DNA from: Chloroflexia bacterium
GTDB taxonomy: Bacteria > Chloroflexota > Chloroflexia > QHBQ01 > JADMIH01
Direction: 5' to 3'
DNA: 64,000 nt
Assembly (NCBI GenBank): GCA_035274425.1
Contig: DATEOC010000017.1
Coordinates: 5,456 to 69,455 of the forward strand
This document shows, piece by piece, positions 10,509 to 62,400 of the stretch. The notes under the pieces were generated by a model. It was given only the letters and a program-made list of their open reading frames with translations. It did no database searches and was not told where the DNA came from. Position 1 is the first letter of the stretch; each line of letters begins with the position of its first letter. Position numbers and translations under genes: made by a program.

Positions 10509-10799
10509 GACGACGGACGACGGACGACGGACGATAGATGATGGGTTGGAAAATAGTCAATTCCGGTGTAGAAATGTACTCTCAGAACCTAACCTGACAT
10601 AGAGATTCGTTAACATGTCAGGTTAGGTTTGGGCCACCTGATCGCCATCCAGTAAGCCTATTGCCGCTTAGAAGCAAAAAAGCGTACCGCTCATCTTAAG
10701 AAGGTCTATGTACGCTTCGCTTTTGGAGCGCTTGGTAATCACCCTCTATCGTCTATCATCTATCATTTATCGTCCGTCGTCCGTCGTCCGTCGTCCGTC
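10509..10799. repeat. MITE-like intergenic structure: GACGACG/GATAGAT heptamer array (10509-10544) and its reverse complement (10746-10799) flanking a perfect 15-bp stem hairpin (aacctaacctgacat...atgtcaggttaggtt, ~10596-10640)
   Basis: Direct reading: gacgacggacgacggacgacggacgatagatgat vs ...atcatctatcatttatcgtccgtcgtccgtcgtccgtcgtccgtc. Confidence 0.75.
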
Positions 10800-28573: not shown

Positions 28574-30946
28574 TTAGCGCGTCCCCGTTCTGAATTGCGG
28601 CGTGGTCTCTTCACTTTTGGAAGTTCGTGTAGATGCTGCCCTGCCTCTAGCTGGACTTCCTTTGGCTGTGCTCACTTTTTCGGGCGCGTTGCCCAACTCA
28701 GAATTGCTGCCATTCCCGGCAGACGGGTTCGCGATGCGCGGGAAGTAGCCTGCGCCCCGCAACTCCTTTAGCAGACGTTGGGCAGGACTTTCGCGTCCGG
28801 ACTCCGAAGCGGGTGGCAGGGCGGCAATCGCGATGGTAGGGGTGAGGCGGCGCGTAATGTAGCGCTTGGTCTTGCGCGACGCCATCAATTCATCCAGCAC
28901 GGTGGGGTCCGCGACCTCAACGATTGTAACCTCTACGATGTCGAGGCGCTTTATCAGGCGCTCCCAGTCAGCAATTGAATGGGCGACGTTCTGAGGGAGG
29001 GCCTTGCCGGTGTTGGCCTCCAGAAAGCCCTTTATTTCCTCCCCCGTAAGCCCCGACTCGACGGCTCGTACCACGCTCTCCTTGTTGATGGTATAGACGC
29101 TAACGCGGTCATGGCGCACCAGGTCGGACATGCGGAGGAGGTTCCACACCACCGCGCTCTCCGGGTGTAGCACCAGCACCTCGAAGTTAGGCTGTACCAT
29201 CAGGCCCATGCTATTTTGGATTTTGGATTTTGGATTTTGGATTTGGGGTGTAGCTTGGGCGGCCTCTTCTCCCTTTTGGCTGCTGCCTTCAGCCTTGTGG
29301 CCGTTGGCTGGGGCGAATAAGGCCTGGCCCTCCGGGGTGACGCGGAAGGAGATGAAGCGCCTCTGCTTGTCACGCCCGATCTCTACAGCACCCAGCCAGT
29401 TGAGCATCGTCCTCAGCATATCGGCGATAATGCGGCCCTCTATCTCGAACCAATGGCTCCTGAAGCCCTGCAAGGCGCGCAAGCCAAATCTCTTCACCAG
29501 CTCGTCCTGGCTCCATATCAAGAAGGGGTCTATCAGTTGAATGCGCCTTAAAAAACCGTCCAGGTTGATCCACTCGCCTGCGGTGAGGCCGAGGAGGTGC
29601 TTCGCGAGGCGCTTGCGCGCGCCTGTGAGGTCGCTATTCCACCAATAGATAGTGCCGTACGTGGCCGGCTCGGCCCACTTGCGGTCCTCCTGCCAGAGGC
29701 CATACAGGCGGCGGCGTTGCGCCTCGAAGGAGAGCTTCGACCACTCTTCCGCCTTGGGGGCGAGAGCGAGCGTCACCTGCTCGCCCTGTTGCTCGACAAG
29801 CAACCCCAGGGAGCGGGCCAGATGGACTACCATATCTATATATTCGCTCTCGCTCTTGATGTCAGCAGGGTGGAGGAAGGCGTCGTTTATTCGCTTCGCG
29901 ACGCGCTTCGTAATTCGGGAGTCCTGGAGGGTCAATTGAAGCTCGCCTTGCAGGCCCGTCGCCAGGAGGGTCAGCATGTCCCAGGGCATCTCATAGGGGA
30001 GGCGGCTTTCGATAGTGTGCGGCGCGGGCGCGACGAGCTTAGGCTGCATGATAGGGGCGGTCTCGTTACCGCCTGAGGAGCGATTCAGCAAGTCCTGGGG
30101 CACGAAGAGGAAGCGCTTTTCTCCGACCAATACATCCCACACGAGCGCCCTTTGCACCAGGGGCGCTACGGCTGCGCGCATCTCACGGTCGTCCCAGTGG
30201 AAGTGGCGGCGCGCCTCGGCAGCCCTGACCGCTCCACCCCCTTTCTCTACGTGTTCGAGCAGCTTCTGGGAGCTTAGCGAGAGGGTAGAGATGAGTAGCT
30301 GGCGACCCTGCCCGGCGGCAAGGAACTCGCTCATGACCCCGATCAATTCTGATTTGTAATAGCGAGTAGTTTCGGGCAGTTTCCATGTGGCGGCGATGCG
30401 CTGTATCTCTTCCTGGTCGAGGCCCTCAAGGAGGGCGGCGAACGGCTCATCGAAGGGCGGGGGGCGCTTGCTCTCATCGATAATGTCCCGGAGGATCTTT
30501 GCCTCTTCCGCCGCGATAGAGACCACGCGGCGCTTGACCGCCTCAGCCTGGTTCTTGGGCGCCCAGGCGTAGAGATTATCGCCGGAGGAGACGACGCGCG
30601 TCCCGCGCACCATCACCTCGTCAACGTCTACCAGGCCGAGGCGTCTCGTCCAATCGAGGATGGGGGTGACCTCTTCTTCGGGGCGGGCGAATTGCGCGGG
30701 TAGGTCGTCCACGAGCGCCAGCATGTTGCGCTGGTTGAGGAGCCAACCGAGGAAAGCGCGTGCGTCAGGCTCCAGGTTCTCCCAGATGTTGCGCGTCGCG
30801 GACCGCTCCACCATCGTATGGTAGACCGCTATCGCCAGGTCGTTATGCGTGGGGTTCTGGTCGCGGTTGATAGTGCCCCATGCGTTGGCAATTACCTTTA
30901 ATTCTTCAAAGGGCCGGCTCATCAGCCGCCCAAGAAGGTTCTTCAA
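28574..30946 (-). CDS. Large hypothetical protein (790 aa), co-oriented and translationally coupled with ruvA-maf; carries an in-frame GGATTTT heptamer array
   Basis: Long intact ORF with coding-like composition and no motif I can recognise. nt 29215-29246 (ttttggattttggattttggatttgggg) translates in frame as PQIQNPKSKIQNS. Confidence 0.5.
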   Translation of the reverse strand: MKNLLGRLMSRPFEELKVIANAWGTINRDQNPTHNDLAIAVYHTMVERSATRNIWENLEPDARAFLGWLLNQRNMLALVDDLPAQFARPEEEVTPILDWTRRLGLVDVDEVMVRGTRVVSSGDNLYAWAPKNQAEAVKRRVVSIAAEEAKILRDIIDESKRPPPFDEPFAALLEGLDQEEIQRIAATWKLPETTRYYKSELIGVMSEFLAAGQGRQLLISTLSLSSQKLLEHVEKGGGAVRAAEARRHFHWDDREMRAAVAPLVQRALVWDVLVGEKRFLFVPQDLLNRSSGGNETAPIMQPKLVAPAPHTIESRLPYEMPWDMLTLLATGLQGELQLTLQDSRITKRVAKRINDAFLHPADIKSESEYIDMVVHLARSLGLLVEQQGEQVTLALAPKAEEWSKLSFEAQRRRLYGLWQEDRKWAEPATYGTIYWWNSDLTGARKRLAKHLLGLTAGEWINLDGFLRRIQLIDPFLIWSQDELVKRFGLRALQGFRSHWFEIEGRIIADMLRTMLNWLGAVEIGRDKQRRFISFRVTPEGQALFAPANGHKAEGSSQKGEEAAQATPQIQNPKSKIQNSMGLMVQPNFEVLVLHPESAVVWNLLRMSDLVRHDRVSVYTINKESVVRAVESGLTGEEIKGFLEANTGKALPQNVAHSIADWERLIKRLDIVEVTIVEVADPTVLDELMASRKTKRYITRRLTPTIAIAALPPASESGRESPAQRLLKELRGAGYFPRIANPSAGNGSNSELGNAPEKVSTAKGSPARGRAASTRTSKSEETTPQFRTGTR
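29215..29246. repeat. GGATTTT heptamer tandem array inside the 790-aa CDS (in frame)
   Basis: Direct reading. The same heptamer family occurs in NRPS module 1 (51725-51802). Confidence 0.85.
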
Positions 30947-39631: not shown

Positions 39632-39713
39632 AGACACAAATCCCCCAACTCGCCTTTGCACTGCGCCTGGCCCCAAATAGCTCCCTTGCATCTGTTGTTG
39701 GTGCTGTATGACA

Positions 39714-41163: not shown

Positions 41164-41362
41164 TCAAGCACGGGCTTCCTTGCTGGCATTATACTCTTTC
41201 TCGTGGTTGTAGATGCCCCCACACCGCAAATCACTGACCTTATTGTACCACTTAGTATGGTTGTGGAAGGGTTCTCGCCTCAGACTGTGCAATTCATACA
41301 GGCATCTATGATATGGGCCACCCTGGTATCGCCTCGTCTATCGCCTCCATAAGCCTCATTGT

Positions 41363-41572
41363 CTATTGCAGAGGAGCAAGCACGCGACTGTTGTGGTAGA
41401 GATCGTCAAACGTCAGTGTGCGGACCTTGCGGTCTTTCAGCCACTTTTCTGCTACATGGTAGCCGCCGATGTGGAAGTCCCACACCTGTGGTGACACGTC
41501 CTCGAAGTATTGCGTCTTGTTGATAGGGATATGGACCGGCTGATTACCTTGTGGCGATATGTACGACCTCAT
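41363..41572 (-). pseudogene. Remnant encoding only the C-terminal ~70 aa of a type IIG/IIL (MmeI-like) restriction-modification or BREX PglX-type methyltransferase
   Basis: VWDFHIGGYHVAEKWLKDRKVRTLTFDDLYH matches the conserved C-terminal motif (VW.F.IGGYQV..KWLK.R) of the MmeI/PglX family. There is an in-frame stop immediately upstream, so the rest of the gene is absent. Confidence 0.5.
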
Positions 41573-41878
41573 CGAAGCTGTCTCTTACCCACCGCGCCTG
41601 CACATCTACCCTGACCACATCCGACTTGGATCTATCGGCTAGAACGGCCAAATGTCGGCGAAAGATCGTAGTCGGCATGCGATATGGTAAGCCCTATCGA
41701 GGGAAATACCCGAATCTGTGGCAATTGTTGCCTCGTTTGTGTAGACGTGTCCACTCCGGAACCATCACAAGCAGGTTACATCTGTTGAGCACGCTGCGAG
41801 CATTGACAATTAGCGCGAACTAGTGTAACATCCACGCGGTTTACCTCGAAACTCGCCTCAAATAGCTTATTTGGATTT

Positions 41879-42106
41879 TTGACTATTGTGGGAACAACAA
41901 AAACTCGACAGGTGCTGGGTGCCCAGATGAAGCGCTATCGTAGATTATTGCGACTTTCCCAACAAGACCTGTCCAAACTGTCTGGCCTTAATCGAAGCTA
42001 TCTGGGAAGCGTTGAACGTGGTGAGCGTAATATTGGGATAGATAACCTAGAGGAAGTTGCTAAAGCACTAGGAATTGAAGCCTGGCAACTTCTGCGCGAG
42101 GAATGA
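41879..42106 (+). CDS. Controller (C) protein of a restriction-modification system (XRE-type HTH)
   Basis: RSYLGSVERGERNIGIDNLEEVAKALGIEAWQLL closely follows the C-protein pattern (R.YIS.VERG.RN.SL..L.KIA.AL). A TTGTgggaACAA palindrome lies within the first 50 nt, so the true start may be the downstream MKRYRR (41927). Confidence 0.6.
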   Translation: MTIVGTTKTRQVLGAQMKRYRRLLRLSQQDLSKLSGLNRSYLGSVERGERNIGIDNLEEVAKALGIEAWQLLREE

Positions 42107-42115
42107 TCCCCACAT

Positions 42116-43378: not shown

Positions 43379-43496
43379 GATTGCTCCTTATAAGTATCAG
43401 CTTCATATTGAGTTCATCATACCTAATCTGTGGGGACGAGTCAACAGTTATGCACATCAATCATAAGTACTGCGATCTACACAAGGAGGCTATTCG

Positions 43497-44543
43497 ATGG
43501 ACTACACTGAGGGGGACATAGAGACGGAGGCACTTCCTGGGCAAAGAACAACACAGGAGGGCATCTCGAAAATATTCTACTTTTTTGAGCGCTACACAAC
43601 ATTATCTAGTGGCCGCACAATCGGTCGGAAAATCGGTGTGGTCCAGGAGATTGTAGTTCGTAGCTATTTGTTACAGTATGGACGTTTGGCTGATGCTGTG
43701 ATCTTCGAGCCGCAACTTCCTGGTTACTCTGGAGCAACCCACAAAGTAGAGTTCGTGTTTTGTCAGCCGATCAAAGTAGTAGAATTTGGTCTAGGATGTT
43801 CTAGTCCAATTGGATCCTGCCAATTTACGCTGTTGTCGATAGATACGGAAAAGATGCGGGCGACATTCTCAGTAACGAACGGAGAAAGAGAACAAAAAGC
43901 AACCTTGATACCCTTTCAAGTGCTGGATAGCGCAAAAGGGAATAAGGGTAAAGGTGTACTCTCATTCGGAGCAACTGTCAAGATAAGCACTCTCACCGAT
44001 GATCGGGTCAGGCTTGTCGTTCTTGACCGCGCAGACGTAAGAGCGTCCGTTGAGAGCAAACGGGTTGGAGCACAGCGTTTTTCTGGCTCTGATAAGCTCG
44101 GTGCAGGTATTCAGACTATCGAAAAGGCAAAGCAAGCTTCTTTGGTGGCCATTGATGCCGACCTCCTGTTTAATGGACAGCTAAAAGTACTTTCAGTACC
44201 TGGGGCAACTAGGCGCTACATTTCTGTGGTTGTTCTAGGTAACGGTGTTCACTGGACCGAGAAAGACTTGAGCGTGCTAAAGACTTATGTAGACTTTACA
44301 TTCCTAATTCCTGACGACTCTATCATTCGGTACGCGGAACATGTACTCCAACTCGCAACAGAAGCTGGCCACCCCTTCATTGATTTCTTTCAATCGTATT
44401 TTGAGGGAATGACCAAAGCGGTTCCCGATGGATTTACTGTAGGCGAGGGGGACTTTCAGGTTCTAAGGCCGGAAACAGAGACGCGAACACTGTCGGATAT
44501 TCTCGATTCGCAACTGGACACTTACCCAATAGTTGAAGCATAG
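43497..44543 (+). CDS. Candidate restriction endonuclease partner of the adjacent methyltransferase (hypothetical protein)
   Basis: Inference from position: divergent from the MTase, next to a C gene, in lower-GC DNA. No nuclease motif recognised; type II REases are rarely recognisable by eye. Confidence 0.35.
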   Translation: MDYTEGDIETEALPGQRTTQEGISKIFYFFERYTTLSSGRTIGRKIGVVQEIVVRSYLLQYGRLADAVIFEPQLPGYSGATHKVEFVFCQPIKVVEFGLGCSSPIGSCQFTLLSIDTEKMRATFSVTNGEREQKATLIPFQVLDSAKGNKGKGVLSFGATVKISTLTDDRVRLVVLDRADVRASVESKRVGAQRFSGSDKLGAGIQTIEKAKQASLVAIDADLLFNGQLKVLSVPGATRRYISVVVLGNGVHWTEKDLSVLKTYVDFTFLIPDDSIIRYAEHVLQLATEAGHPFIDFFQSYFEGMTKAVPDGFTVGEGDFQVLRPETETRTLSDILDSQLDTYPIVEA

Positions 44544-44775
44544 CAATAAGCTCAAAATAGAGATGAACCGTAGTGTTGACAGCAGCCCTTCAACGCATAA
44601 GGTAGGCATATCTTCTTAGTCACAAATTTATCACACCATATGCATAATCAACCCATCTCAACGATCACCAAGTAACATAGTAGGCAAATCCACAGGCACA
44701 AACCCCACTACTCATCTATCCCCAACCATCACCACTCTCTCGAATCTCGCCTTCGGCACAAATATAAAGTCTTCT

Positions 44776-49146: not shown

Positions 49147-52100
49147 GTGCGTACCCAAGATCGTCTAGCAACTACGTCATCCGCGTCGTCTACATTCCTA
49201 CACAACCTGGGCAAGCCTGCGACGGGGGAAGGGTCCGAGACCCACTCCTACGATCACCTCTCCCTTGCCCAACGGCGTATATGGGCATTGGACCAGTTGG
49301 TCCCAGGCAGCCCACAACATAACTCTTATATTGCCCTCCACCTCGCCGGACCGCTTGATCCACAAAGGCTGGAACGGTGCCTCAAAAAGGTCGGAGAACG
49401 GCATGATATTTTGCGGACTGCTTTCCCCCTGATTGATGGGCAGCCGGTCCAGATAGTAGCAGACCTCCCTTTCACTTTGCCCTTGCCCTTGTCCGACCTC
49501 AGTGGCCTGCCTGAGGCGGAGAAGGGCGACGCAGTAAAGCGTCTGGCGAGGGAAGAAGCGCAATACCCCTTCGACCTGGCGCAAGGCCGGTTGATACGGG
49601 CCGCACTGCTGCGCCTGGGCAACGATGAGCACCTACTGCTGCTGACGGCGCATGGGATTGTATGCGACGATCTCTCCATCAGGGTACTATGTGAGGAGTT
49701 GGCCGCGCTCTACGCCGCCTCGTCCACGGAAGAGCATTCGCCCCTCCCTCAGCCGCCGATGCAGTATGTCGACTATGCAGCTCGGCAGGAGGAGTGGCTG
49801 AAAGGGGAGGAGGCACAGGCCCAGATTGCATACTGGAAGGGGCAATTGGGCGGCAACCCTCCCGTGCTCGAATTACCTGCTGACCGGCCACGACCTCCGG
49901 TGCAGACGCATTACGGCGCTCGCCAACCTCTGCTCTTACCCTCCGAATTGGTGGAGGCGGTCAAGAGATTGAGTCAGCAGGAAGGGGTGTCGTTGTTCCT
50001 GACGATGCTATCGGCGTTCGAGACATTGCTCTATCGTTACACGGGACAGAGCGACATTGTGCTCGGTACGGAGACCGCTGGCCGCACCTCACCTGAGGGA
50101 GCAGGCTCTATAGGTCCACTTGCCAACATGCTGGCGTTGCGCACCAGCCTGGAAGGAGATCCCAGCTTCCGCGAGTTGCTGAAACGGGTGGGGCAGGTAG
50201 TTGCTGATGCGCACGCCAATGGAGACGTGCCTTTCGAGAAGCTGGTAGAAGAGTTACAGCCTGAGCGCGATCTGAGCCGCGCACCCTTCTTTGGGCTGAC
50301 CTTTGCTTTTCAAGACGCTCCGCCCCAACTGGAGTTTCCGGGTCTAATCGGCTCTATCCTCGACCTTGATCCGGGCATCGCGAAGTATGACCTCTCTCTG
50401 TCTATTGTAGACACGGAGGGTGACCTGAGTGGATGGGCCGAGTACAACAGTGATCTCTTTGACGCCTCGACCATCCGCAGGATGCTTGGGCATTTTCAGA
50501 TGCTGTTGGGAAGTATCGTGTCTGACCCTGGCCTTGTAATTTCAAAGCTGCCTATGCTGACCGATGCCGAGCGCCAGCAGTTGCTTGTCGGGTGGAACAG
50601 CACCGGCACGGGCTACCCACAGAGCGCGTGTATACACGAGTTGTTTGAGAGACAGGTGGAGAAGACGCCAGATGCGCCGGCTATCAGTTTCAAGGGTAAA
50701 CGTCTGACGTACCGGCAACTCAACAGCAAAGCTAACAAGCTGGCTCACCACCTGCGGGCGCTTGGGGTGGGTCCTGAGAAGCCGGTCGGGGTCTGCATGG
50801 AGCGCTCGCTCAACCTGGTGGCCGCTATGATGGGGGTGCTGAAAGCGGGCGGGGCCTATGTGCCCCTCGACCCAGCTTACCCGCACGACCGTCTCTCCTT
50901 TATGCTCGCGGACTCGCAGGCCCCAGTGTTGCTTACGCAGAGAGGGCTGTATGCGGAGCTTGCAACGCTGGGGGAGCATGGGGCGAAGGTGGTCTACCTC
51001 GATGATGGGTGGGAGGAGGCCATCGCGGGTGAGGAAGGGAATCCCGCGCCCATTTCCAACTCAGATAACCTGGCCTACATCCTCTATACCTCTGGCTCGA
51101 CCGGACGCCCAAAGGGAGTGAGCATCGAGCATAGGAGTGGCATTGCGCTCATAGAATGGGCGAAAGAGACGTATACGGAGGAAGAGCTTTCCAGGGTGTT
51201 GGCCTCGACCTCGATCTCGTTCGACCTCTCGGTGTTCGAGTTATTCGTCACATTGAGCGGTGGGGGTATGGTCGTCCTCGTAGAGAACGCGCTTCACCTG
51301 CCCACCCTCGGCCCTGAGGAACAAGTCACGCTGGTAAACACCGTCCCTTCGGCGATTGCCGAGCTACTGCGCACTGGAGGCGTGCCCACTTCGGTGCGCG
51401 TGGTCAACCTCGCCGGAGAGCCGTTGCAGCAAACGCTAGTCCAGCAGCTTTACGCACAGGTGCCGACCTGCCGGGTGTTCAACCTTTACGGCCCGACCGA
51501 GGACACCACTTACTCCACCTTCGCGCTCATGGAGAAGGGGAGTACGACGTTGCCGACCATCGGGCGGCCAATCGCCAACAGCCAGGTCTACCTGCTCGAC
51601 CGGCACGGAGAGCCGGTGCCGGTGGGCGTGCCAGGCGAGTTGTACATGGGCGGGGCAGGACTCGCCAGGGGCTACCTAAACCGCCCCGACCTCACTGCTG
51701 AGCGGTTCGTACCAAACCCCTTTTCTGATTTTGGATTTTGGATTTTGGATTTTGGAGTGGACCCTGATAATCCAAAATCCAAAATCCAAAATCCAAAATC
51801 AGGAGGGCGGCTGTACAGGACGGGCGACCTGGCGTCTTACCTGCCGGACGGCAACATCCGGTTTCATGGGCGGCTGGACCACCAGGTGAAACTCCGGGGG
51901 TTCCGCATCGAGCTTGGTGAGATCGAGGCGGTGCTGAGGCAGTACCCTGCCTTGCAGGATGTGGTGCTGATGGTGAGGGAAGATGTCGCGGGTGACAAGA
52001 GGTTGGTGGCTTACGTAGTCCCCAGCCCAGACTCCTCACTCGTCAGCTCTCAGCTGCGCGATTATCTGAGGGAGAGGCTGCCGGAATACATGGTCCCGTC

Positions 52101-55100
52101 GGCTTTTGTGGTGCTGGAGAAGCTCCCCCTCACACCAAATGGCAAGGTGGACCGCCGCTCTCTGCCCGCCCCTGAACTGGATAGGATGGAGGGCGGCGCT
52201 GAGTATGCCGCGCCGCGAAGCCCTGTAGAGGAAGCGCTTGCCGGTATCTGGGCCTCGGTGCTCGGCATCGAGCGTGTGGGGATACATGACAACTTCTTCG
52301 ACCTGGGAGGGCACTCGCTACTAGCGACTCAGGTGATCTCCAGGGTGCGGGAGGTGTTACATGCAGAGTTGCCGCTACGCCGCTTCTTCGAGACGCCTAC
52401 CGTGGCCGGTCTGGGTGAGAGTATCGAAGCAGCCCTTAAGGGAGGTTCAGTTGCTCCTGCCCCGTCCCTCCATCGCCTGCCCAGGAGAGAGAATTTACCC
52501 CTGTCGTTCGCGCAGCAGAGGCTCTGGTTCCTCGACCAGTGGCAGCCCGCTAGTGCCGCCTATAACATACCGGTTGTCATGCGCCTGGACGGGTCGCTCC
52601 AGGAGGAGGCGCTTCGGAAGAGCATCAACGCGATAGTCGAGAGGCATGAAGCTCTGCGCACAACCTTCTCGGTAGCAGGAGATCGGCCCGTGCAGGTGAT
52701 CGCTCCTGCCCTGGACGTTCCCCTGCCCGTTGTGGACCTGGGCAGTGTGCCCGACGAAAAGAGGGAAGCGGAGGCCCAACGGCTGGTCAAGGAGGAAGCA
52801 CGACGCCCGTTCGACCTGGCTCGGGGACCCTTGTTGCGTGCTCGCTTGCTGCGCCTGGACGAGGAGAGACACCAACTCGTGTTGGTCATGCACCACATCA
52901 TCTCGGATGGGTGGTCTATGGGCGTGCTGGCGCAGGAGCTGGCGGAGCTTTATAGGGCGTTCGCTGCCGGGGAGGCTCCGTCCCTTCGCGACCTGCCGGT
53001 ACAATATGCCGATTACACCATCTGGCAGCGAGAGTGGCTGCAAGGCGAGGCGCTCCAGGGCCAGCTCGATTATTGGAAGGGGCAACTGGCCGGCGCACCC
53101 GCCGCTCTCGAGATGCCAACAGATCGCCCTCGCCCCGCTATGCTCACTTATCGCGGGGCAAAGCAGCCATACCGTCTTACCGGAGACCTTGCCCAGGAGT
53201 TGAAGGGAATGGTCCGGCGCGAAGGGGTGACGATGTACATGGCGCTCCTTTCGGCTTTCACGGCGCTCCTCCACCGATACACGGGGCAGACCGACATCGT
53301 GGTAGGCTCGCCCATAGCCAACCGTACCAGGCCTGAGATCGAGGGGCTGATCGGCTTCTTCGTCAACATGCTGGCGTTACGGACCGACCTTTCAGGCGAC
53401 CCGACCTTCCGGGAGTTGCTGGGCCGGGTGCGAGAGGCGTCGCTGGGGGCGTATGGCCACCAGGACTTGCCGTTCGACAGGCTGGTGGAGGAGATGCAGC
53501 ATGAGCGCAATCTGGCCTACCATCCCATCTTCCAGGTAGCCTTCGTCCTCCAGAATGCGCCTACGGTAGCCCTGCAACTGCCAGGCTTGAGTATCGCCAA
53601 CCTTGAGGTTGATAAGGTTGACATGGGCACGGCGCGGTTTGACCTGATGTTTATCATCGAGGAAAGAGAGGAGGGGCTGTCGGTTGAGGTCGAATACAGC
53701 ACCGACCTGTTTGATGCTTCAACGATTACCCGCATGTTGGAGCACTACAGGGTCCTGTTGGAAGGAGTTGTCGCACAACCGGATCAGCGGGTATCAGAGC
53801 TGCCCCTGCTCACAGACGAGGAGCGGCAGCAGTTGCTCGTGGAGTGGAACAGCACGCATACCGACTACCCGCGAGACGAGTGCATTCACCCCCTCTTTGA
53901 GCGACAGGCGCAGCAGACGCCCGACGCAGTTGCGCTCATCTTCGGGGAAAAGCGCCTCACTTACCAGGAGTTGGACCAACGCGCTAACCGGTTAGCTCGC
54001 CACCTGAGAGATATGGGTATAGGCCGGGAAACGCTGGTAGGGGTCTGCATGGAGCGCTCTATAGAGATGGTGGTGGCGCTTTTGGGAGTGCTGAAAGCGG
54101 GTGGGGCGTATGTGCCTCTCGACCCCTCCTACCCGGAGGAGCGCCTGCGCTTCATGATGGAAGACACGCAAATTTCTGTGTTGTTGACTCAAGCGGTGCT
54201 GGCGGAGAAGCTCCCCGCTCATGTGGCGCGGGTAGTGCGCTTAGATACCGACTGGAGCGATATTGCCCGACAAAGCAGTGAGCCACTAGAGAGCGAGACG
54301 ACGGCAGAGAACCTGGCATACGTGATGTACACCTCCGGCTCCACCGGGCAGCCGAAGGGGATCGGCGTGCCGCACCGGGGAGTGGTCCGGCTGGTCAAGA
54401 ATACCAATTATGCTGACCTTTCCGACGACCAGGTATTACTCCAGTTCGCGCCTATCTCATTCGATGCGTCCACGCTCGAAATCTGGGGCAGCCTGCTCAA
54501 CGGAGCGCGCCTGGTGATTTACCCAACCACCGATGTGCCCCTCCTGGAAGAGCTGGCCCAGGTTATTGAAGAGTACGGCGTCACCACGCTATGGCTGACG
54601 GCGGGGCTGTTCCACCACATGGTAGAAGGCGGCCACCTGCGAGGGCTGACTAGCTTGCGCCAGCTGCTGGCTGGTGGGGACGTTCTATCGGCCCCTCACG
54701 TCAGGAAGGCTATCCAACAACTGGGAAGTGGCTGCACGCTGATAAACGGCTACGGCCCCACAGAGAACACAACCTTCACCTGCTGCTACCCTATGACCCA
54801 GTCGGCGCAGGTAGGCGACTCGGTGAGCATAGGCAGACCTATCGCCAACACGCAGGTCTATCTGCTCGACCGGCATTTGCAGCCCGTGCCGGTAGGGGTG
54901 GCAGGGGAGCTTTATATAGGTGGAGACGGCCTGGCGAGGGGTTACCTGAACCGCCCCAACCTCACGGCGGAGCGCTTCGTGCCCAACCCCTTCTTGAGTG
55001 CGGAATTCGGAGTGCGGAGTGCGGAATGGGACGAAGAGGCAAAAGAAGGTAGTAAGCAGAAGGCAGAAGGCAGTAATTACAATCCGCACTCCGCAGGTTC

Positions 55101-55914
55101 TTGGGCTATGCCCAATTCAGGCACTCCGCATTTAGAGGGGCGGCTCTACAGGACTGGCGACCTGGCTCGCTATCTGCCTGACGGGAGGATAGAGTTCCTG
55201 GGGCGCATAGACCAGCAGGTGAAGGTGCGTGGGTTCCGCATCGAGCTTGGCGAGATCGAGGCTGTGCTGGCCCAGCACCCGTCTGTGCAAGATGTCGTCG
55301 TCACGGCGCGAGAGCGGGACGATGCGCCCGGCGATAAGCGTCTGGTGGCCTATGTAGTGGGCGACTCTGGGCAAGGTCAGCCTTCCACACCCTCTGAGTT
55401 GCGCCAATACTTGAAAGAGAGGCTGCCGGAGTACATGGTCCCGTCGGCGTTCGTACAGATGGAGAAGCTGCCCCTCACGGCTAACGGCAAGGTGGACCGC
55501 CGTGCGCTCCCCGCGCCTGAGCTGGGGCGGGCAGAAGGAGACGCGGAGTACGTAGCGCCGCGCAATCCTGTAGAGGAGACGGTAGCGGCGATTTGGGTCT
55601 CGGTGCTGGGCATCGAGCGCGTGGGCGTTCACGACAGCTTCTTCGAGGTGGGCGGGCACTCGCTTGCAGCTACGCAGGTGGTATCGAGGGTGCGCGAGGC
55701 GTTACGTGTAGAGCTGCCGCTACGCCGCCTCTTCGAGACGCCTACCATAGAAGGCCTGGCAGAGGCAATCACCGAGATACAGAGCGATGTGTCAGCAGAG
55801 ATACCGGCCATAAGCAGGGCAAGTGCGGAAGAGTGGGGAGAGTTTCCGGACATCGAGGGGCTATCGGACGAGGAAGTGGATGCGCTCTTGCGAGAGATGA
55901 TGGCAGACAGGTAA
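49147..55914 (+). CDS. Non-ribosomal peptide synthetase, two modules: C(starter-type, variant active-site motif)-A-PCP-C-A-PCP, with a C-terminal docking tail
   Basis: C1 motif is LLLTAHGIVCDDLS (AHxxxDD in place of HHxxxDG). C2 is HHIISDGWS. A-domain cores appear twice: LKAGGAYVPLDP, YTSGSTGRPKG, NLYGPTE, GELYMGGAGLARGYL, YRTGDLA, GRLDHQVKLRGFRIELGEIE, NGKVDRR. PCP FFDLGGHSLLATQ appears twice. Approximate domain spans (nt): C1 49250-50570, A1 50630-52170, PCP1 52240-52440, C2 52500-53860, A2 53880-55520, PCP2 55590-55790. Confidence 0.9.
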   Translation: MRTQDRLATTSSASSTFLHNLGKPATGEGSETHSYDHLSLAQRRIWALDQLVPGSPQHNSYIALHLAGPLDPQRLERCLKKVGERHDILRTAFPLIDGQPVQIVADLPFTLPLPLSDLSGLPEAEKGDAVKRLAREEAQYPFDLAQGRLIRAALLRLGNDEHLLLLTAHGIVCDDLSIRVLCEELAALYAASSTEEHSPLPQPPMQYVDYAARQEEWLKGEEAQAQIAYWKGQLGGNPPVLELPADRPRPPVQTHYGARQPLLLPSELVEAVKRLSQQEGVSLFLTMLSAFETLLYRYTGQSDIVLGTETAGRTSPEGAGSIGPLANMLALRTSLEGDPSFRELLKRVGQVVADAHANGDVPFEKLVEELQPERDLSRAPFFGLTFAFQDAPPQLEFPGLIGSILDLDPGIAKYDLSLSIVDTEGDLSGWAEYNSDLFDASTIRRMLGHFQMLLGSIVSDPGLVISKLPMLTDAERQQLLVGWNSTGTGYPQSACIHELFERQVEKTPDAPAISFKGKRLTYRQLNSKANKLAHHLRALGVGPEKPVGVCMERSLNLVAAMMGVLKAGGAYVPLDPAYPHDRLSFMLADSQAPVLLTQRGLYAELATLGEHGAKVVYLDDGWEEAIAGEEGNPAPISNSDNLAYILYTSGSTGRPKGVSIEHRSGIALIEWAKETYTEEELSRVLASTSISFDLSVFELFVTLSGGGMVVLVENALHLPTLGPEEQVTLVNTVPSAIAELLRTGGVPTSVRVVNLAGEPLQQTLVQQLYAQVPTCRVFNLYGPTEDTTYSTFALMEKGSTTLPTIGRPIANSQVYLLDRHGEPVPVGVPGELYMGGAGLARGYLNRPDLTAERFVPNPFSDFGFWILDFGVDPDNPKSKIQNPKSGGRLYRTGDLASYLPDGNIRFHGRLDHQVKLRGFRIELGEIEAVLRQYPALQDVVLMVREDVAGDKRLVAYVVPSPDSSLVSSQLRDYLRERLPEYMVPSAFVVLEKLPLTPNGKVDRRSLPAPELDRMEGGAEYAAPRSPVEEALAGIWASVLGIERVGIHDNFFDLGGHSLLATQVISRVREVLHAELPLRRFFETPTVAGLGESIEAALKGGSVAPAPSLHRLPRRENLPLSFAQQRLWFLDQWQPASAAYNIPVVMRLDGSLQEEALRKSINAIVERHEALRTTFSVAGDRPVQVIAPALDVPLPVVDLGSVPDEKREAEAQRLVKEEARRPFDLARGPLLRARLLRLDEERHQLVLVMHHIISDGWSMGVLAQELAELYRAFAAGEAPSLRDLPVQYADYTIWQREWLQGEALQGQLDYWKGQLAGAPAALEMPTDRPRPAMLTYRGAKQPYRLTGDLAQELKGMVRREGVTMYMALLSAFTALLHRYTGQTDIVVGSPIANRTRPEIEGLIGFFVNMLALRTDLSGDPTFRELLGRVREASLGAYGHQDLPFDRLVEEMQHERNLAYHPIFQVAFVLQNAPTVALQLPGLSIANLEVDKVDMGTARFDLMFIIEEREEGLSVEVEYSTDLFDASTITRMLEHYRVLLEGVVAQPDQRVSELPLLTDEERQQLLVEWNSTHTDYPRDECIHPLFERQAQQTPDAVALIFGEKRLTYQELDQRANRLARHLRDMGIGRETLVGVCMERSIEMVVALLGVLKAGGAYVPLDPSYPEERLRFMMEDTQISVLLTQAVLAEKLPAHVARVVRLDTDWSDIARQSSEPLESETTAENLAYVMYTSGSTGQPKGIGVPHRGVVRLVKNTNYADLSDDQVLLQFAPISFDASTLEIWGSLLNGARLVIYPTTDVPLLEELAQVIEEYGVTTLWLTAGLFHHMVEGGHLRGLTSLRQLLAGGDVLSAPHVRKAIQQLGSGCTLINGYGPTENTTFTCCYPMTQSAQVGDSVSIGRPIANTQVYLLDRHLQPVPVGVAGELYIGGDGLARGYLNRPNLTAERFVPNPFLSAEFGVRSAEWDEEAKEGSKQKAEGSNYNPHSAGSWAMPNSGTPHLEGRLYRTGDLARYLPDGRIEFLGRIDQQVKVRGFRIELGEIEAVLAQHPSVQDVVVTARERDDAPGDKRLVAYVVGDSGQGQPSTPSELRQYLKERLPEYMVPSAFVQMEKLPLTANGKVDRRALPAPELGRAEGDAEYVAPRNPVEETVAAIWVSVLGIERVGVHDSFFEVGGHSLAATQVVSRVREALRVELPLRRLFETPTIEGLAEAITEIQSDVSAEIPAISRASAEEWGEFPDIEGLSDEEVDALLREMMADR
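51725..51802. repeat. 78-bp perfect inverted repeat of GGATTTT heptamers (31-bp arms, 16-nt spacer) inserted in frame into the A6-A7 loop of NRPS adenylation domain 1
   Basis: ctgattttggattttggattttggattttgg / agtggaccctgataat / ccaaaatccaaaatccaaaatccaaaatcag. It encodes SDFGFWILDFGVDPDNPKSKIQNPKS between FVPNPF and GGRLYRTGDL. 78 = 26 codons. Confidence 0.9.
54996..55131. repeat. In-frame heptamer-repeat/partial-palindrome insertion (GAGTGCG..., GAAGGCA x3, ...CCGCACTCCGCA) in the A6-A7 loop of adenylation domain 2
   Basis: gagtgcggaattcggagtgcggagtgcggaat ... gaaggcagaaggcagtaat ... aatccgcactccgcagg ... cactccgca. It encodes LSAEFGVRSAEWDEEAKEGSKQKAEGSNYNPHSAGSWAMPNSGTPHLE. Confidence 0.85.
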
Positions 55915-55924: not shown

Positions 55925-58900
55925 ATGAGCACTATGGACAGACCACTGGCAGACCTCTCACCCAAGGAGAAGCGCGCCCTCCTCGCGGAGCAGGTCAGGC
56001 AGAGAGCTGCGCAGACTGACGCTCCCAGGCATTTCCCCCTGTCGTTTGCCCAGATGCGTCTGTGGTTCCTCGACCGCATGGAAGGGGGCAGCCCCTTTTA
56101 CAACGTCTCGTTTGCCACGCGCCTGACGGGGCCGCTCCATCTGGAGGCGTTGAGGCGTAGCATCAGCGAGATCGTGCGTCGCCATGACACATTGCGGAGC
56201 AGCTTCGTGACGGCGGACGAGGATCCTGTGCAGGTTGCCGCGTCGTACGCGGATGTGCCCCTGCCGGTCCAGGATGTGCGACATCTACCTGCGCAGGAGC
56301 GCGAACGGGAGGCCCACTCGCTCCTAACCGAGGAAGCGCAGCGCCCCTTCGACCTGGCGCAAGCTCCCCTGGTACGCACGTTGATAATACGGCTGGATGA
56401 GGAAGAGCACCTCCTCCTGGTGACGATGCACCACATCATCGCGGATGGGTGGTCGTTCCATCTTTTCCACGGTGAATTGCAGACTTTGTATTCGGCCTTC
56501 GTCGCCGGCAATCCATCTCCACTACCTGAATTGCCTATCCAGTACGGCGATTACGCTGTCTGGCAGCGAAAGCGGCTGCAAGGCGAGATTCTACAAGCTC
56601 AGCTTGAATACTGGATGAGGCAGATCAGAGGCGCGCCGCCCTTGCTGGAACTGCCCGCTGACCGGCCACGCCCAGCCAGGCAGACCTACAGGGGAGCCAC
56701 CCAATCTATCACTTTGCCGCCGGAACTGGTCCACGAACTGGAGCACCTGAGCAAGCAGGAGGGTGTCACCTTCTTCATGACGTTGTTGGCGGCATTCGAT
56801 GCACTGATCTACCGCTATACAGGCCAGACCGACGTCGTGGTGGGCGCGCCGATAGCGGGGCGCACGCGCAGGGAGGTAGAAGGGTTAATAGGTTTCTTCG
56901 CCAACACCCTACTCTTTAGGGCCGACCTGGGAGGTGAGCCTACTTTCCGCGAGCTTTTGGCCAGGGTCAAGGAAGTGGCGTTGGGCGCATACGACCACCA
57001 GGACCTGCAGTTCGAGCGGCTTGTAGAAGAAGCTCAACCTGAGCGCAACCTGAGCTACAATCCGCTCTTCCAGGTGATGTTTGGACTGGAGAACACGCCC
57101 CGCGAAATTCGGGAGCAATCGGGCCTGGTGTTCGACACTGCCCTCTTCGAAAGCGGCACATCCATCGTTGATCTGTCTCTCACGATCATCGACACTCCAC
57201 AGGGTACCCAGGCGCAGGCTGAATACAGTACAGATTTGTTCGATAGAGACACGATTACCAGGTTGCTGGGGCACTACCGCACGCTGTTGGAGGCAGTGGC
57301 CCGCGACCCCCAGACTCCGGTCTCCCAACTGCCGATCCTGACCGAGAGTGAGCGGCGCACACTCTTGGTCGAATGGAACGATACCCGTAATGACTACCCA
57401 CGAGAGTTATGCGTCCACCAGTTATTCGCGGCGCAGGCGAACCGCACGCCCGACAAGGTTGCCCTGGTGTATGGCAAGCAGAAGCTGACGTACCGGGAAC
57501 TGAGTGAGCGCGCAAACAAGCTGGCCCATTACCTGCGGACGCTTGGGGTAGGCCCTGACACCCTGGTGGGCATATGCGTGGAGCGCTCGATAGAGATGGT
57601 GGTAGGTGTGCTCGGAGTGCTGAAGGCAGGTGGGGCATACGTGCCACTAGACCCTACATACCCGAAGGAGCGGCTGGCCTACATGGTAGAGGATTCGGGG
57701 GCCGGAGTGCTGCTCTCTCAAGAGGAGTTAGCCGGGCTTGCTCAAGACCTGGCCGGACAGCGCGCCCACAGGGTGCTCCTCGACCGCGATTGGAAGGGGA
57801 TAGAGCCCCAGCCCGCAGGCGATCCGGCCCCAGAGGGTGGCCCCGACAACCTGGCCTACGTTATTTATACCTCCGGCTCTACAGGCAGGCCCAAGGGGGT
57901 GCAGGTCCCCCACCGTGCCCTAACTAACCACTTATGGTCCATGAAAGCTAAGCCTGGGCTGGCGGAGGATGATGTGCTGTTGGCCGTCACTTCCCTCTCG
58001 TTCGATATAGCCGCCTTAGAGTTGTACCTGCCCCTCGTCACCGGTGCTACGCTGGTGCTGGCTAGCAAGGATATCGCCTCCGATGGCATTCTCCTGGGAA
58101 GGGAAATAGCCGAGAGGGGAGCGACTGTAATGCAGGGCACGCCCGCGTCGTGGCGGCTGCTGTTCATAGCCGATGCCTGGCCTGCCCGGGCAACAGGTAC
58201 CCTGAAGGCGCTGTGCGGTGGTGAGGCGCTCCCTGTTTCGTTGGCTTATGACCTGTCGTGCAGGGCAGTCGCCGTGTGGAACATGTACGGCCCTACCGAA
58301 ACGTGCATCTGGTCTACCATCCACAAGGTGGAGATAGGGGAACAGAAAGGTCCCAACTCCTCCGTAACCAGTATAGGCAGGCCCATTGCCAACACGCAGG
58401 TGTACCTTCTGGATCGCCACATGCAGCCTGTGCCAATAGGGGTGGCAGGGGAGCTTTATATAGGCGGTGATGGCCTGGCGCGAGGCTACCTGGGCAGGCC
58501 AGACCTGACTGCCGAGCGTTTCGTACCCAACCCCTTTTCGAATGCGGAATTCGGAGTGCGGAATGCGGAATCAGCTTCTAATCCGTACTCCGCAGGTTCT
58601 TGGGCTACGCCCAATTCAGGCACTCCGCACTCAGGAGAGAGGCTGTACAAGACGGGGGACCTGGCTCGCTATCTGCCTGACGGAAGGATAGAGTTCCTGG
58701 GGCGGATAGACCAGCAGGTGAAGGTGCGTGGGTTCCGCATCGAGCTTGGCGAGATTGAGGCTGTGCTGGGCCAGCACCCTGCTCTGCGTGAAGCGGTCGT
58801 AAGCGTGCGGGGTAGAGAGAGTGACGACAAACGGTTGGTAGCTTACGTTGTGGCGCACCCCGGTCAGGCTCCATCTTCAACAGAGCTGCGCAACCTCCTG

Positions 58901-59462: not shown

Positions 59463-62400
59463 ATGAACAGAGATACTAGCCCTACGCCAACGGCAGAACT
59501 TACCCTTGAGCAGAAGCGCGCCCTTCTCGCGCAACAGCTAGCCAAGCGGCAGAAGCCTCGTGCGTTCTCTACATCGTTTGCTCAGCAACGGCTCTGGCTC
59601 GTTGACCAACTTGAGCCTGGCAATGCATTCTACAACGTACCTATCGCCACCCGCCTGACCGGGCCACTCGACGTTGCAACACTGGAGCGGAGCCTCGCTG
59701 AGGTAGTGCGCCGCCACGATGACCTGCGCACTACCTTCTCGGTTGTGGAAGGCCAGCCTATGCAGGTTGTCGCCTCGATGGTCAAGGTGCCTTTACAGGG
59801 CGTGGACCTGCGACATCTGCCTGAGGAAGCGCGGGAGGCAGAGGCCAAACGCATCACCGAAGAGGAGGCGCGCAGGCCGTTTGACCTAGTGCAGGGTCCA
59901 CTTATACGAACCATCCTCCTGCGAACGGGTGAGGAGGAGCACCTGCTGATGCTGACGATGCACCATATCGTCTCTGACGGTTGGTCCATGCAGATTTTCT
60001 ACGAGGAATTGGAGGCGCTCTACAACGCCTTCACGGAGGGGAAGCCATCGCCGCTCCCTGAGTTGCCGGTACAGTACGCCGATTACGCGGTGTGGCAGCG
60101 AAACTGGCTACAGGGCGACGTTCTGCAAGCGCAGCTTGACTACTGGAAGAAGCAGCTAGAAGGCGCGCCTCCCCTGCTGGAACTGCCGACTGACCGCCCA
60201 CGCCCTCCCGCACAGACCTTCAAGGGCGACCACGAGTCTATAGTGCTGCCTACGAGCCTGGCACAACAGTTGGAAGCGCTGGGGAGAAGAGAGGGGGCCA
60301 CCCTCTTCATGACCTTACTCGCGGCGTTCGGGACGCTGCTCCACCGCTACACAGGGCAGGCAGACATCGTCATAGGCTCTCCCATCGCGGGCCGCACCCA
60401 CGAGGAGCTTGAGGGACTGATCGGATTCTTCGTCAATACGCTGGTGTTGCGATCAAACTTTGCGGGGGACCCTACCTTCCGTGAATTGCTCAAGAGGGTG
60501 AGGGAGACCGCGTTGGGGGCATATGCTCACCAGGATGTACCTTTCGAGAAGCTGGTCGAGGAGCTGCAACCTGGGCGCGACATGAGCCGGACCCCTTTCT
60601 TCCAGGTGATGTTCGTGCTACAGAACGCGCCCATCCCTGACCCCAAATTGAAGGGCCTTCAGGCCAAGACATTCATTGTGGACAGCGGCACGGCCAAGTT
60701 CGACCTGACGCTGGATATGCAGAACGAAGAGGATGGGCTGCACGGGGACCTGGAATACAACACTGACCTGTACGACGCATCAACCATCAGGCGTATGCTG
60801 GGACACTTCCAAACGCTCCTTGAGGGTATCGTCTCCGATCCTACACTTAGGGTATCGGAGCTACCATTGCTTAGCGGTGACGAACGGCAGCAGTTGCTGG
60901 TGGAGTGGAACAGCACATACAGGGAGTACCCGCACGATAGGTGCATACACCAGTTGTTCGAGGAGCAGGTAGAGAAGACACCTGACGCCGTAGCTGTAGT
61001 GTTCGGTGACGAGCAGTTGACTTGCGGGGAGTTGAACAGTAGAGCGAACAAGCTGGCACGACATCTGCGAAAATTGGGAGTAGGGCCGGAGGTGCTGGTA
61101 GGGCTGTGCGTGGAGCGCTCCATTGAGATGGTGGTAGGGCTGTTGGGGATACTGAAGGCAGGGGGGGCATACGTTCCCCTGGACCCTTCCTACCCCAAAG
61201 ATAGGCTTGCGCACATACTGGAAGATAGTCGCGCTCCCGTGCTAGTCACGCAAAGTACGCTCAGCCTGGCGAGCGAACTATCTCATAAGGTGCAAACTGT
61301 CTATCTTGACAGGGACTGGACAGCTATCGAGGGTGAGAGTGGTGAGAACCTCGACCAGCAAGGGATAAGCGTAACGCCGGACAACATGGCGTATGCCATC
61401 TACACCTCCGGCTCTACCGGCCTGCCGAAGGGGGTGCTTGGCCTGCATCGCGGGGCCATCAATCGCTTCCGGTGGATGTGGGAGACCTACCCTTTCACAG
61501 AGGGCGAGGTCTGCTGCCAGAAGACCGCCCTGAGCTTCGTCGACTCGATCTGGGAGATATTCGGCCCATTGCTACAGAGCGTTTCGCTAGCTATCATCCC
61601 TGACGAGGTGTTGAAGGACCCACAGCTGTTCGTGGGTGCGCTCGCAAAAGCGGGAGTTACGCGTCTTGTGCTTGTGCCCTCTCTTCTTCGGGTGCTATTG
61701 GAAACTGATCACGATCTCGATGCCAAACTGCCCAGGTTGAAGGTGTGGGCGACCAGCGGCGAGGCGCTTTCGACGGATCTGGCGCACCGCTTCAAGATGA
61801 TGCTCCCTGGCCGTACCCTGCTGAATATCTACGGCTCGTCGGAAGTGTCCGCCGACGTGACCTGGCACGACCTGAGCCGAGAGAGCGCCGACCTCACACG
61901 AGTACCCATTGGCCGCCCCATCGCCAATACCCAGGTGTACCTGCTTGACAGGCAGATGCAGCCCGTGCCTATAGGCGTGCCCGGTGAGGTGTACGTGGGC
62001 GGGGCCAACATGGCGCGAGGCTATGTTGGGAAGCCGGAGTTGACAGCCGAACGGTTCGTGCCCAACCCCTTTGGGAGTGCGGAATTCGGAGTGCGGAGTG
62101 CGGAGTTAGACGAAGGACGAAGGACGAAAGACGAATATTCAGAAGGCAGAGGGCAGAAGGCAGAAGGCAGTAATCATACTCCGCACTCCACACTCCACAC
62201 TCCGCACTTGGAAGGGCGTCTGTACAAGATGGGCGACCTTGCCCGCTACCTCCCAGATGGCAGCATAGAGTACCTGGGTCGGGCCGATTACCAGACGAAG
62301 ATACATGGCTTCCGCATCGAACCGGACGAGATCGCGGCCACTCTCGCGCAGCATGATGCCGTCCGAGAGTGCGTGGTTATCGTCCGAGAGGACGAGCCTG

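Follow-up and report, generated by a model that had tools for sequence, protein, structure and literature searches.

The question raised by this locus is how a perfect DNA palindrome comes to be read, in frame, inside an adenylation (A) domain of a nonribosomal peptide synthetase (NRPS). The locus lies on a contig of a Chloroflexia bacterium, and by the window we mean the whole stretch analysed, 64,000 nucleotides (64 kb) long. At 51725-51802, within A-domain 1 (A1) of the first NRPS gene, a repeat search returned an inverted repeat of 78 bp whose arms are 100% complementary, with 32 nt in each arm and 14 nt between them. An earlier note on this DNA had described a perfect GGATTTT inverted repeat of 78 bp here; the repeat and its total length stand, and the lengths given there for arms and spacer (31 and 16 nt) are to be replaced by 32 and 14. 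This palindrome is a copy of a dispersed GGATTTT/AAAATCC hairpin family, and we consider it probable that it is a selfish or neutral passenger propagated by copying; the earlier view of a hairpin repeat that colonises loops holds in the main. What is most interesting is that such a cassette occurs in all five modules of the cluster, that divergent NRPS genes of different phyla share it, and that it is rapidly replaced among orthologues.

The arms consist of tandem GGATTTT and AAAATCC units (4.3 and 4.6 perfect copies with a period of 7 and 100% matches, according to Tandem Repeats Finder), and beyond them the flanks show complementarity at chance level only. The GC content of the loop that holds the element is 37%, compared with approximately 59% around it. 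When the 14-mer GGATTTTGGATTTT was searched with up to two mismatches, the window contained 11 matches against 0.23 expected from shuffles, and all of them fall at two loci only, the A1 hairpin and 29211-29245. The RNA fold of the A1 hairpin region has an energy of -57.5 kcal/mol (z = -10.65 against shuffles). An Rfam scan of the whole window at gathering scores returned two tRNAs only and no RNA family at the A1 hairpin.

The element is translated within the open reading frame (ORF) 49147-55914 on the forward strand as FVPNPF-SDFGFWILDFGVDPDNPKSKIQNPKSGG-RLYRTGDL, giving a loop of 28 residues between motifs A6 and A7. The product carries the Pfam domains Condensation, AMP-binding, AMP-binding_C and PP-binding, and it matches LgrA (E = 6e-205) as well as many other NRPS structures. 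Pfam, the LgrA match, the motifs in the translation and an AlphaFold2 model agree in identifying the host of the element as the adenylation domain of a condensation-adenylation-thiolation (C-A-T) module. Genes for an MbtH protein, an O-methyltransferase and a thioesterase are encoded downstream of the NRPS genes. We surveyed the distance from NPF to RLYxTGD in the 120 best homologues of the A1 segment; this strict pattern could read 85 of them, of which 66 have a loop of 6 residues, and by inspection the loops of the remaining homologues are mostly short too. A homologue search with the segment of A-domain 4 (A4) again found the plain short loop to be predominant. Alignment to LgrA (PDB 6mfy) opens a gap of 25 residues exactly at the A1 insert, and for many other solved A domains the alignment ends at NPF. 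The earlier note had placed extra residues in the A6-A7 loop, in frame between FVPNPF and RLYRTGDL; this position is borne out, with 28 residues where 6 are usual. No Pfam domain was found in the 28-residue insert. In the AlphaFold2 model of the A domain the mean predicted local distance difference test (pLDDT) score is 88, and insert residues 393-400 and 406-412 score below 50 with almost no secondary structure. The A1 insert is extra loop sequence, which solved structures and most homologues lack, and the model predicts it to be disordered.

Heptamer-built inserts are found at the identical A6-A7 site in all five A domains of the cluster (A1 to A5), and most of them are hairpin-forming. They measure 84, 147, 102, 144 and 123 nt in A1 to A5, every one a multiple of 3, and the corresponding loops have 28, 49, 34, 48 and 41 residues; the 49-residue peptide of A2 is LSAEFGVRSAEWDEEAKEGSKQKAEGSNYNPHSAGSWAMPNSGTPHLEG. 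Fold z-scores against shuffles are -3.3 for A2, -3.4 for A3 and -7.2 for A4. The left arms of the A2-A5 cassettes are near-identical, the 300-nt flanks on each side are 56-78% identical between modules, and the presence of the inner blocks (GACGAAG)n and (CAGAAGG)n and of a small inner hairpin varies among these four cassettes. With cassettes in five of five A domains, colonisation is not one event confined to A-domain 1.

Coordinates of the A1 hairpin, its host gene, the other cassettes of the cluster and two further arrays (window positions unless another source is named)
Feature	Position	Strand	Description
Host NRPS gene, C-A-T-C-A-T, 2255 aa	49147..55914	+	first of four NRPS genes
Entire extra-long A6-A7 loop of A-domain 1	51724..51807	+	84 nt, 28 codons, between the NPF and RLY codons
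Left arm	51725..51756	+	C-TGATTTT-(GGATTTT)x3-GGA; translation DFGFWILDFG
Spacer, 14 nt, GTGGACCCTGATAA	51757..51770	+	includes the GGACCC motif common to NRPS-borne copies
Right arm	51771..51802	+	TCC-(AAAATCC)x3-AAAATCA-G; translation NPKSKIQNPKS
A-domain 2 cassette, 147 nt	54994..55140	+	outer arms (GAGTGCG)n / (CGCACTC)n; inside, GACGAAG and CAGAAGG arrays and a small inner hairpin
A-domain 3 cassette, 102 nt	58538..58639	+	arms as in A2; without the inner arrays
A-domain 4 cassette, 144 nt	62073..62216	+	(GAGTGCG)4 (GACGAAG)4 (CAGAAGG)4 (ACTCCRC)4
A-domain 5 cassette, related, 123 nt	L001 19652-19774		just past the window end
(CCAAAAT)x4.6 array, single orientation	29213..29246	-	in frame in an inter-domain linker of a 790-aa Helicase_C_3 protein; reads QIQNPKSKIQN
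Intergenic example	10509..10799	.	inverted (GACGACG)n and (GATAGAT)n arrays around a core of about 200 bp with a further hairpin

The same repeat is widely dispersed outside this cluster. A scan of species-representative genomes with (GGATTTT)3 listed at least 120 loci, which together hold at least 129 arrays with a minimum of three units each; the 120 genome loci among the matches listed belong to Cyanobacteria (55), Acidobacteriota (23), Chloroflexota (21), Verrucomicrobiota (5), Planctomycetota (5) and other groups (11). Stop-free frames of at least 250 codons enclose 81 of the 129 listed arrays, and most of these read NPKSKIQNPKS. The hosts confirmed by Pfam are an SMC protein, two Ser/Thr kinases, the linker between the ketosynthase and acyltransferase domains of a polyketide synthase (PKS), an AMP-binding/PP-binding enzyme, two xanthine dehydrogenase-family proteins, IleRS and an adenylosuccinate lyase-family protein, and in total the family occurs in frame in at least nine other protein families. 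That the repeat is read in frame in many unrelated proteins, where it occupies loops and linkers, agrees with the earlier proposal that the insert is not ancestral coding sequence. At least 122 metagenome loci have the palindromic form, in which the arms measure 16-37 nt and the spacers 2-29 nt. Lengths of the listed metagenomic hairpins fall into the three classes modulo 3 as 35/42/45, without bias. The majority of copies are found between genes or in ORFs that are spurious products of GC-rich DNA, so that this distribution does not bear on coding copies. We also searched a 34-residue loop peptide with HMMER against 1.84 billion representative proteins; the 51 matches are mostly short spurious ORFs or long satellite-like arrays, and the query, which is too short for a census, added one NRPS carrier (P0146) and one lyase (P0170). 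The latter is an adenylosuccinate lyase-family protein of 278 aa in which a full translated GGATTTT hairpin, DFGFWILDFGPGAGANPKSKIQNPKSK, stands directly before the GSSAMPHKHNP signature loop, beside a catalytic loop. In IMG/VR, (GGATTTT)3 occurs in 32 stretches of viral contigs (L246-L277), several giant-virus metagenome-assembled genomes (MAGs) among them.

Derived variants recur within this family. A 3-nt variant, GGATTGCCGATTTT, has 13 instances at 12 unrelated loci, including a Nostoc NRPS loop, the NRPS loop of a soil contig and a PKS linker. The variant unit AGATTTT stands beside the left arm in 52 of the 128 hairpins listed, and the mirror unit, AAAATCT, beside the right arm in 44. The recurrence of such derived variants in unrelated contexts suggests copying from common templates rather than independent slippage.

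An array of GGATTTT is free of stop codons whichever of its six frames is read. Stop-free reading on both strands is a property of 1180 of the 2340 heptamer classes, but of only 78 of the 530 classes with at most two G or C. The units that form hairpins in coding loops (GGATTTT, GAGTGCG and CAATCTG) are all stop-free on both strands, and AATTACG, whose complement has TAA, is found in these loops in a single orientation only. Any in-frame hairpin of stop-free heptamers is read through as a peptide with a seven-residue period.

A GGATTTT hairpin occupies the A6-A7 loop in at least six other NRPS genes, Nostoc included. One of them, encoding P0042 (L002, soil metagenome, 56% identical), reads NPF-ADFGFWILDFGLDPIQNPKSKIQNGE-RLY from a hairpin of 4+4 GGATTTT units with perfect 30-nt arms. 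The carriers L130, L137, L200 and L207 came from a palindrome scan of metagenomes, the Nostoc carrier L004 from a genome scan, and P0146, known as protein only, from the HMMER search. All seven share the junction NPF-X-(D/N)FG...IQN(G/P), and in all but one of them G(E/D/P/T)-RLY follows. In the DNA the junction is NPF plus one codon plus (G/A)ATTTTGG on the left and CCAAAAT plus GGNGAN or GGGCCG plus CGN on the right; L004 is an exception, its last unit being followed directly by KLY. Over 270 flanking residues the carriers are only 37-53% identical, and each of them is equally near to a plain domain with a 6-residue loop and to another carrier. A neighbour-joining tree of A-domain flanks is nearly star-like, and is suited to this comparison of carrier and non-carrier closeness and not to counts of gain and loss. 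The spacer motif G[AG]CCC is present in 6/6 perfect NRPS-borne hairpins, as opposed to 15/127 other hairpins listed. In L200 and L207 it appears as the reverse complement relative to the gene, i.e. with the loop flipped. L207 has 5+3 units and L200 has 4+4, both with loops of 26 residues, which indicates that a 7-nt slip can be compensated and the frame kept.

From the common junctions and the spacer signature we conclude that the NRPS-borne GGATTTT hairpins form one cassette lineage, rather than stemming from repeated independent insertions out of the general pool. This lineage has either moved among divergent A domains or stayed near-unchanged while its surroundings diverged. L130, an NRPS contig of several modules from soil sample Ga0075423, carries A6-A7 cassettes in two modules (7528-7656 and 11251-11370). 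Their units differ by module, being GGAGACAC/CAATCTG in one and a GGATTTT hairpin in the other, and one of these cassettes pairs arrays that are non-complementary. In a BLAST search of plasmids the A6 and A7-A8 flanks alone found matches, at approximately 82% identity and insert-free, in NRPS genes of Rhizobium and Sinorhizobium; this similarity makes recombination or templated repair between A domains plausible.

Comparison with close relatives of the window shows that cassettes are replaced. L245 carries the orthologue of A4, which is 94% identical in amino acids and differs from A4 downstream of the loop by scattered nucleotides only, and its loop holds (CGAATTA)x4 followed by (AAATCCG)x4 as opposed to (CAGAAGG)n(ACTCCRC)n in the window. 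L003, the closest relative of A1 (76% identity, Chloroflexia MAG), holds (AATTACG)x3.7 with no hairpin potential (z = 0.13). Since the loops of both relatives hold different heptamer arrays, we conclude that cassette identity changes much faster than the gene.

Outside the NRPS cluster, the earlier note had reported the same heptamer in a 790-aa coding sequence. This array is real and is read in frame within ORF 28574-30946. It adjoins a decayed CAGAAGG-like stretch in the linker, and orthologues at 55-72% identity are without both. L244, which is syntenic with the window at 83-86% nucleotide identity, encodes an orthologue 93% identical in protein sequence and keeps the same four (CCAAAAT) units in frame, so that copy number of an array can be stable. 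The earlier description as a mobile or expansion-prone hairpin repeat therefore needs adjustment in its second adjective, since L244 retains its four units and it is cassette identity that changes quickly, not copy number. Gene calls are disturbed at these repeats: the L244 orthologue (8275-10636) has been called as two overlapping genes split at the array, where the frame is actually continuous, and gene starts have been called just past the repeats in P0304 (after a cassette) and in P0177 (after the array in an orthologue of the 790-aa gene).

In the reading that we favour, that of a passenger propagated by copying, persistence within a gene would depend on three properties: the unit is stop-free on both strands in every frame, the total insert length is a multiple of three, and the A6-A7 loop appears to tolerate 20-45 extra residues that are probably disordered. 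Selection would leave the hairpin repeat only where loops and linkers are permissive. Within NRPS genes the cassette may be copied or exchanged as a unit among A domains, with its junction fixed two residues into the native six-residue loop, and the conserved motif-coding DNA on either side probably assists the exchange. Unrelated heptamer cassettes would replace each other on short time scales, and any gain or loss of units would have to be compensated for the frame to be kept, as in the 5+3 and 4+4 arrangements. The anatomy of the element, the distribution of its family, the subfamily variants, the common junction and spacer, the replacement among orthologues and the predicted disorder of the loop are direct results of the analysis; neutrality, spread by copying and recombination via conserved flanks are what we infer.

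Several observations weigh against this account. Synonymous differences begin at the first codon beside the cassette, which leaves no conversion tract visible. No target-site duplication or other direct duplication is visible in the bases beyond the hairpin arms; the arms make up the whole element, which lacks the combination of terminal inverted repeats and target-site duplication that defines a miniature inverted-repeat transposable element. Among the larger ORFs of the window (24 of 28 screened have a Pfam match) there is no Y1/RAYT or insertion sequence gene, and the sole integrase in the window is phage-type and lies in an unrelated island. The spacers of the general hairpin population are nearly all unique among the matches listed, a poor fit to simple cut-and-paste of the whole element. 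The presence of a cassette in all five modules could reflect selection rather than the neutrality that we propose. Lastly, the family scans cover GGATTTT alone, and the abundance that they list may not be special to this unit.

We weighed other explanations against this one. The hairpin might be functional as nucleic acid, as an mRNA stem or DNA cruciform at the boundary between the Acore and Asub subdomains that serves in ribosome pausing for co-translational folding, as an RNase III site or as a recombination hotspot for module exchange. The stable stems of the cluster cassettes (z = -10.7 for A1 and the values given above for A2 to A4), their occurrence at one place in all five modules, the far better conservation of the arms than of nearby coding DNA and the retention of the hairpin form in carriers from different organisms all agree with such a role. 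However, the cassette of the A1 orthologue L003 is without hairpin potential, the L130 cassette mentioned above pairs arrays that cannot anneal, most A domains function with a 6-residue loop, a terminator and promoter scan near the A1 hairpin gave no signal of either kind, and the repeat is also found in unrelated genes and intergenic DNA; we regard a nucleic-acid role as unlikely. It is quite improbable that the peptide itself is selected, as a longer A6-A7 loop, perhaps a beta-hairpin (FGFWILDFG / NPKSKIQN), for docking, MbtH-like binding or inter-module contacts. While an MbtH-like protein is encoded in the cluster, long loops of 28-49 residues occur in all modules and the spacers of several carriers encode a turn-like DP, GP or NP, the arms are conserved as nucleotides without synonymous variation, and orthologous and paralogous loops encode unrelated peptides (GFWILDF/KSKIQNP, AEFGVRSAE/TPHSALR, ITNYELRIT). 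Moreover, the flipped spacer of two carriers alters the peptide, and most of the insert is modelled with pLDDT below 50 and without secondary structure.

A different possibility is that each cassette formed locally by polymerase slippage and inverted duplication, as an ordinary microsatellite independent of other copies. Heptamers are the most over-represented longer simple repeats in many bacterial genomes, and a slippage origin has been proposed for them (PMC4679880, PMC4692102); the graded units of the intergenic arrays at 31660-31731 (CGATAGA, then CGACAGA, then GACGAAG) and the shift from 4+4 to 5+3 units in L207 look like signatures of slippage. Local formation does not account for identical non-consensus variants at many unrelated loci, for the spacer motif and junction that NRPS carriers share in spite of their 37-53% identical flanks, for the reuse of a few heptamers (GGATTTT, GACGAAG, CAGAAGG) at several loci of the window, or for close orthologues that hold unrelated units and not variants of each other, and we find it doubtful as an explanation of these cassettes. 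A further, rather unlikely proposal is that the A6-A7 site is the target of active, sequence-directed cassette exchange across phyla (homing-like, or by annealing and templated repair), which would repeatedly install heptamer hairpins in the conserved motif-coding DNA of A domains, with the hairpins at one position in every module perhaps acting as breakpoints of module shuffling and natural-product diversification. Finally, the window was assembled from short metagenome reads, a palindrome can arise as an error of assembly, and the related contig L245 begins, and so breaks, inside a cassette. An assembly artefact is nevertheless very unlikely as the source of the palindrome, because the palindrome is shorter than the assembler k-mer (contig name prefix k141) and because matching architecture occurs at the identical site, to the same codon position, in six independent assemblies from other samples; with the element internal and the 2255-codon frame open across it, a chimeric fold-back made by the metagenome assembler is scarcely credible.

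Among known systems, the nearest analogue in behaviour is the Rickettsia palindromic element (RPE), in sequence type the heptanucleotide or short tandemly repeated repetitive (STRR) sequences, and in architecture the REPIN, a doublet of repetitive extragenic palindromic (REP) sequences. The GGATTTT hairpin family appears to belong to none of the three. RPEs are reportedly palindromic repeats inserted in frame in many unrelated genes, where they leave the fold undisturbed and add an extra peptide (Ogata and colleagues are said to have described them in 2000 as 'Selfish DNA in protein-coding genes of Rickettsia'); they are said to be 100-150 bp long, with a complex consensus, and confined to Rickettsia. 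The GGATTTT palindrome is similar in that it lies in frame and leaves the gene undisrupted, as seen from the kept frame, the gap against the solved structure and the disordered model. It is different in its 7-nt unit, in the span of its family over several phyla, in the exchange of cassettes at one fixed domain site and in the turnover between close relatives, and membership is not to be expected of tandem heptamers hosted by Chloroflexota, Cyanobacteria and Acidobacteriota, a judgement made on composition and host taxa. The small dispersed repeats (SDR) of Nostoc, reportedly treated by Elhai et al. in 2008, are said to have units of 21-27 nt with a consensus of their own and to occur nested in hairpins and in heptameric repeat contexts; by description, the nested blocks of the A2-A5 cassettes and of the intergenic arrays resemble this nesting. 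Interrupted A domains contain folded methyltransferase or ketoreductase domains between A2-A3 or A8-A9. They likewise bear extra sequence within an otherwise intact A domain, whereas the inserts described here lie between A6 and A7, comprise 28-49 residues, modelled as disordered in A1, and are encoded by repeat DNA.

Two articles describe STRR and heptamer repeats as few-copy tandem arrays of 7 nt that are dispersed, over-represented and abundant in filamentous cyanobacteria, and that are mainly intergenic, with GGGNATC under-represented in genes (PMC4692102, PMC4679880). The units named there are CCCCAGT, TTGGTCA and CAACAGT, as well as TAACTGA and GGGNATC (Mazel et al. 1990; Mrazek et al. 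2007, via PMC4692102, PMC4679880). Our repeat is likewise a dispersed, head-to-tail tandem array of a 7-nt unit, and the abundance in filamentous cyanobacteria recalls the 55 cyanobacterial loci among the 120 listed; however, GGATTTT/AAAATCC matches no STRR unit described there, and the same articles do not describe paired inverted arrays forming hairpins in coding loops (PMC4692102, PMC4679880). REPINs are REP doublets, each REP being an imperfect palindrome, that enclose a variable spacer, form a hairpin, are extragenic and are mobilised by a REP-associated tyrosine transposase (RAYT; PMC3116915). The present element shares with them two inverted short repeats around a spacer, a length of 60-90 bp, hairpin formation, many copies and the existence of subfamilies. 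It differs in that its arms are tandem heptamers, that the A1 copy and many others lie within genes, and that the RAYT gene on which REPINs depend is not seen in the 64-kb window. PARCELs (palindromic amphipathic repeat coding elements) are translated palindromic repeat DNA distributed horizontally among distant microbes, and consist of long intragenic tandem repeats in surface proteins of Mollicutes and protists, unlike short heptamer hairpins in enzyme loops (PMC2996958). The highly iterated palindrome HIP1 (GCGATCGC), a cyanobacterial marker, has 0 copies in the window, which thus does not derive from a cyanobacterium rich in HIP1; the best match of the NRPS and an intergenic stretch of 92% identity indicate Chloroflexia instead. 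In the library that we searched, no paper connects heptamer repeats to adenylation domains.

Under the reading that we favour, these observations would widen the known range of selfish DNA within protein-coding genes. Rickettsia has so far been its best-known host, which free-living Chloroflexota, Cyanobacteria and Acidobacteriota would now join, and the type of element is also a different one, a tandem-heptamer hairpin that is stop-free in all six frames. Heptamer repeats are abundant in large bacterial genomes yet unexplained, and the quick replacement of cassettes at approximately 94% identity, together with the near-identical arms of paralogues, offers a tractable system for studying how they are generated and copied. 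The A6-A7 loop appears as a naturally validated permissive site for 20-45 extra residues, which could be useful in NRPS engineering for tags, handles or split points. On the practical side, cassettes break assemblies and gene calls and can confuse tools that delimit A domains.

The window contains approximately 14 heptamer arrays, and some units are reused: GGATTTT in A1 and the 790-aa gene, GACGAAG in intergenic DNA (31710-31731), A2, A4 and A5, and CAGAAGG in A2, A4 and, as a decayed copy, the linker of the 790-aa protein. Intergenic arrays at 8044-8200, 10509-10799 and 31029-31770 form nested inverted pairs around cores. Two heptamer arrays of one unit family stand in inverted orientation 2.7 kb apart, (CGACGGA)n at 8046 and, as its complement, (TCGTCCG)n at 10770. 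Each is also part of its own nested hairpin, and between them are encoded a glycosyltransferase and a Rad52/22-family single-strand-annealing protein (9681-10493); the location of this Rad52-like annealing protein beside the arrays might be relevant to array copying. The counterpart of 31029-31770 in L244 (8120-8190) is approximately 75 bp long and consists of (GACGATG)3 followed by (GCTACTC)5. In the window, a segment of approximately 650 bp is located inside the first of these arrays, with arrays of its own (CGTGAAA, CGATAGA, CGACAGA, GACGAAG) and an unannotated core, which suggests that heptamer arrays may be insertion sites for other DNA. ORF 31110-31739 in this region has no Pfam match and is probably spurious. 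A (TTCGGAC)x5 array at 27955-27991 lies exactly at the junction of the ruvA stop (27993) and the N-terminal end of a Maf-like ORF (27263-28003), and the array probably precedes the true Maf start.

Other features of the window are of a different kind. A low-GC island at 32766-44600 (45-53% compared with approximately 59%) adjoins two tRNA genes (32766-32837 and 33375-33457) and encodes an integrase of phage type (33547-34689), a Prim-Pol protein of 937 aa (36911-39724) and a DNA methylase (42116-43378). The island, which lies just upstream of dnaE and the NRPS cluster, probably represents a mobile element that has integrated. Tandem repeats with periods of 33-108 nt at 1320-2100 and 7051-7282, in two large genes for SLH/LTD-domain surface proteins (11-3001 and 3104-8044), encode Thr/Ala-rich repeats and have no relation to the heptamer arrays. 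A 123-nt intergenic stretch at 21557-21679, between the genes for FTHFS and a FolD-like protein, matches no Rfam family at gathering score; it is 92% identical to the Chloroflexia MAG L053 and 88% identical to L244, a conservation far above that of its surroundings, and it might serve the folate genes as a leader or riboswitch-like element.

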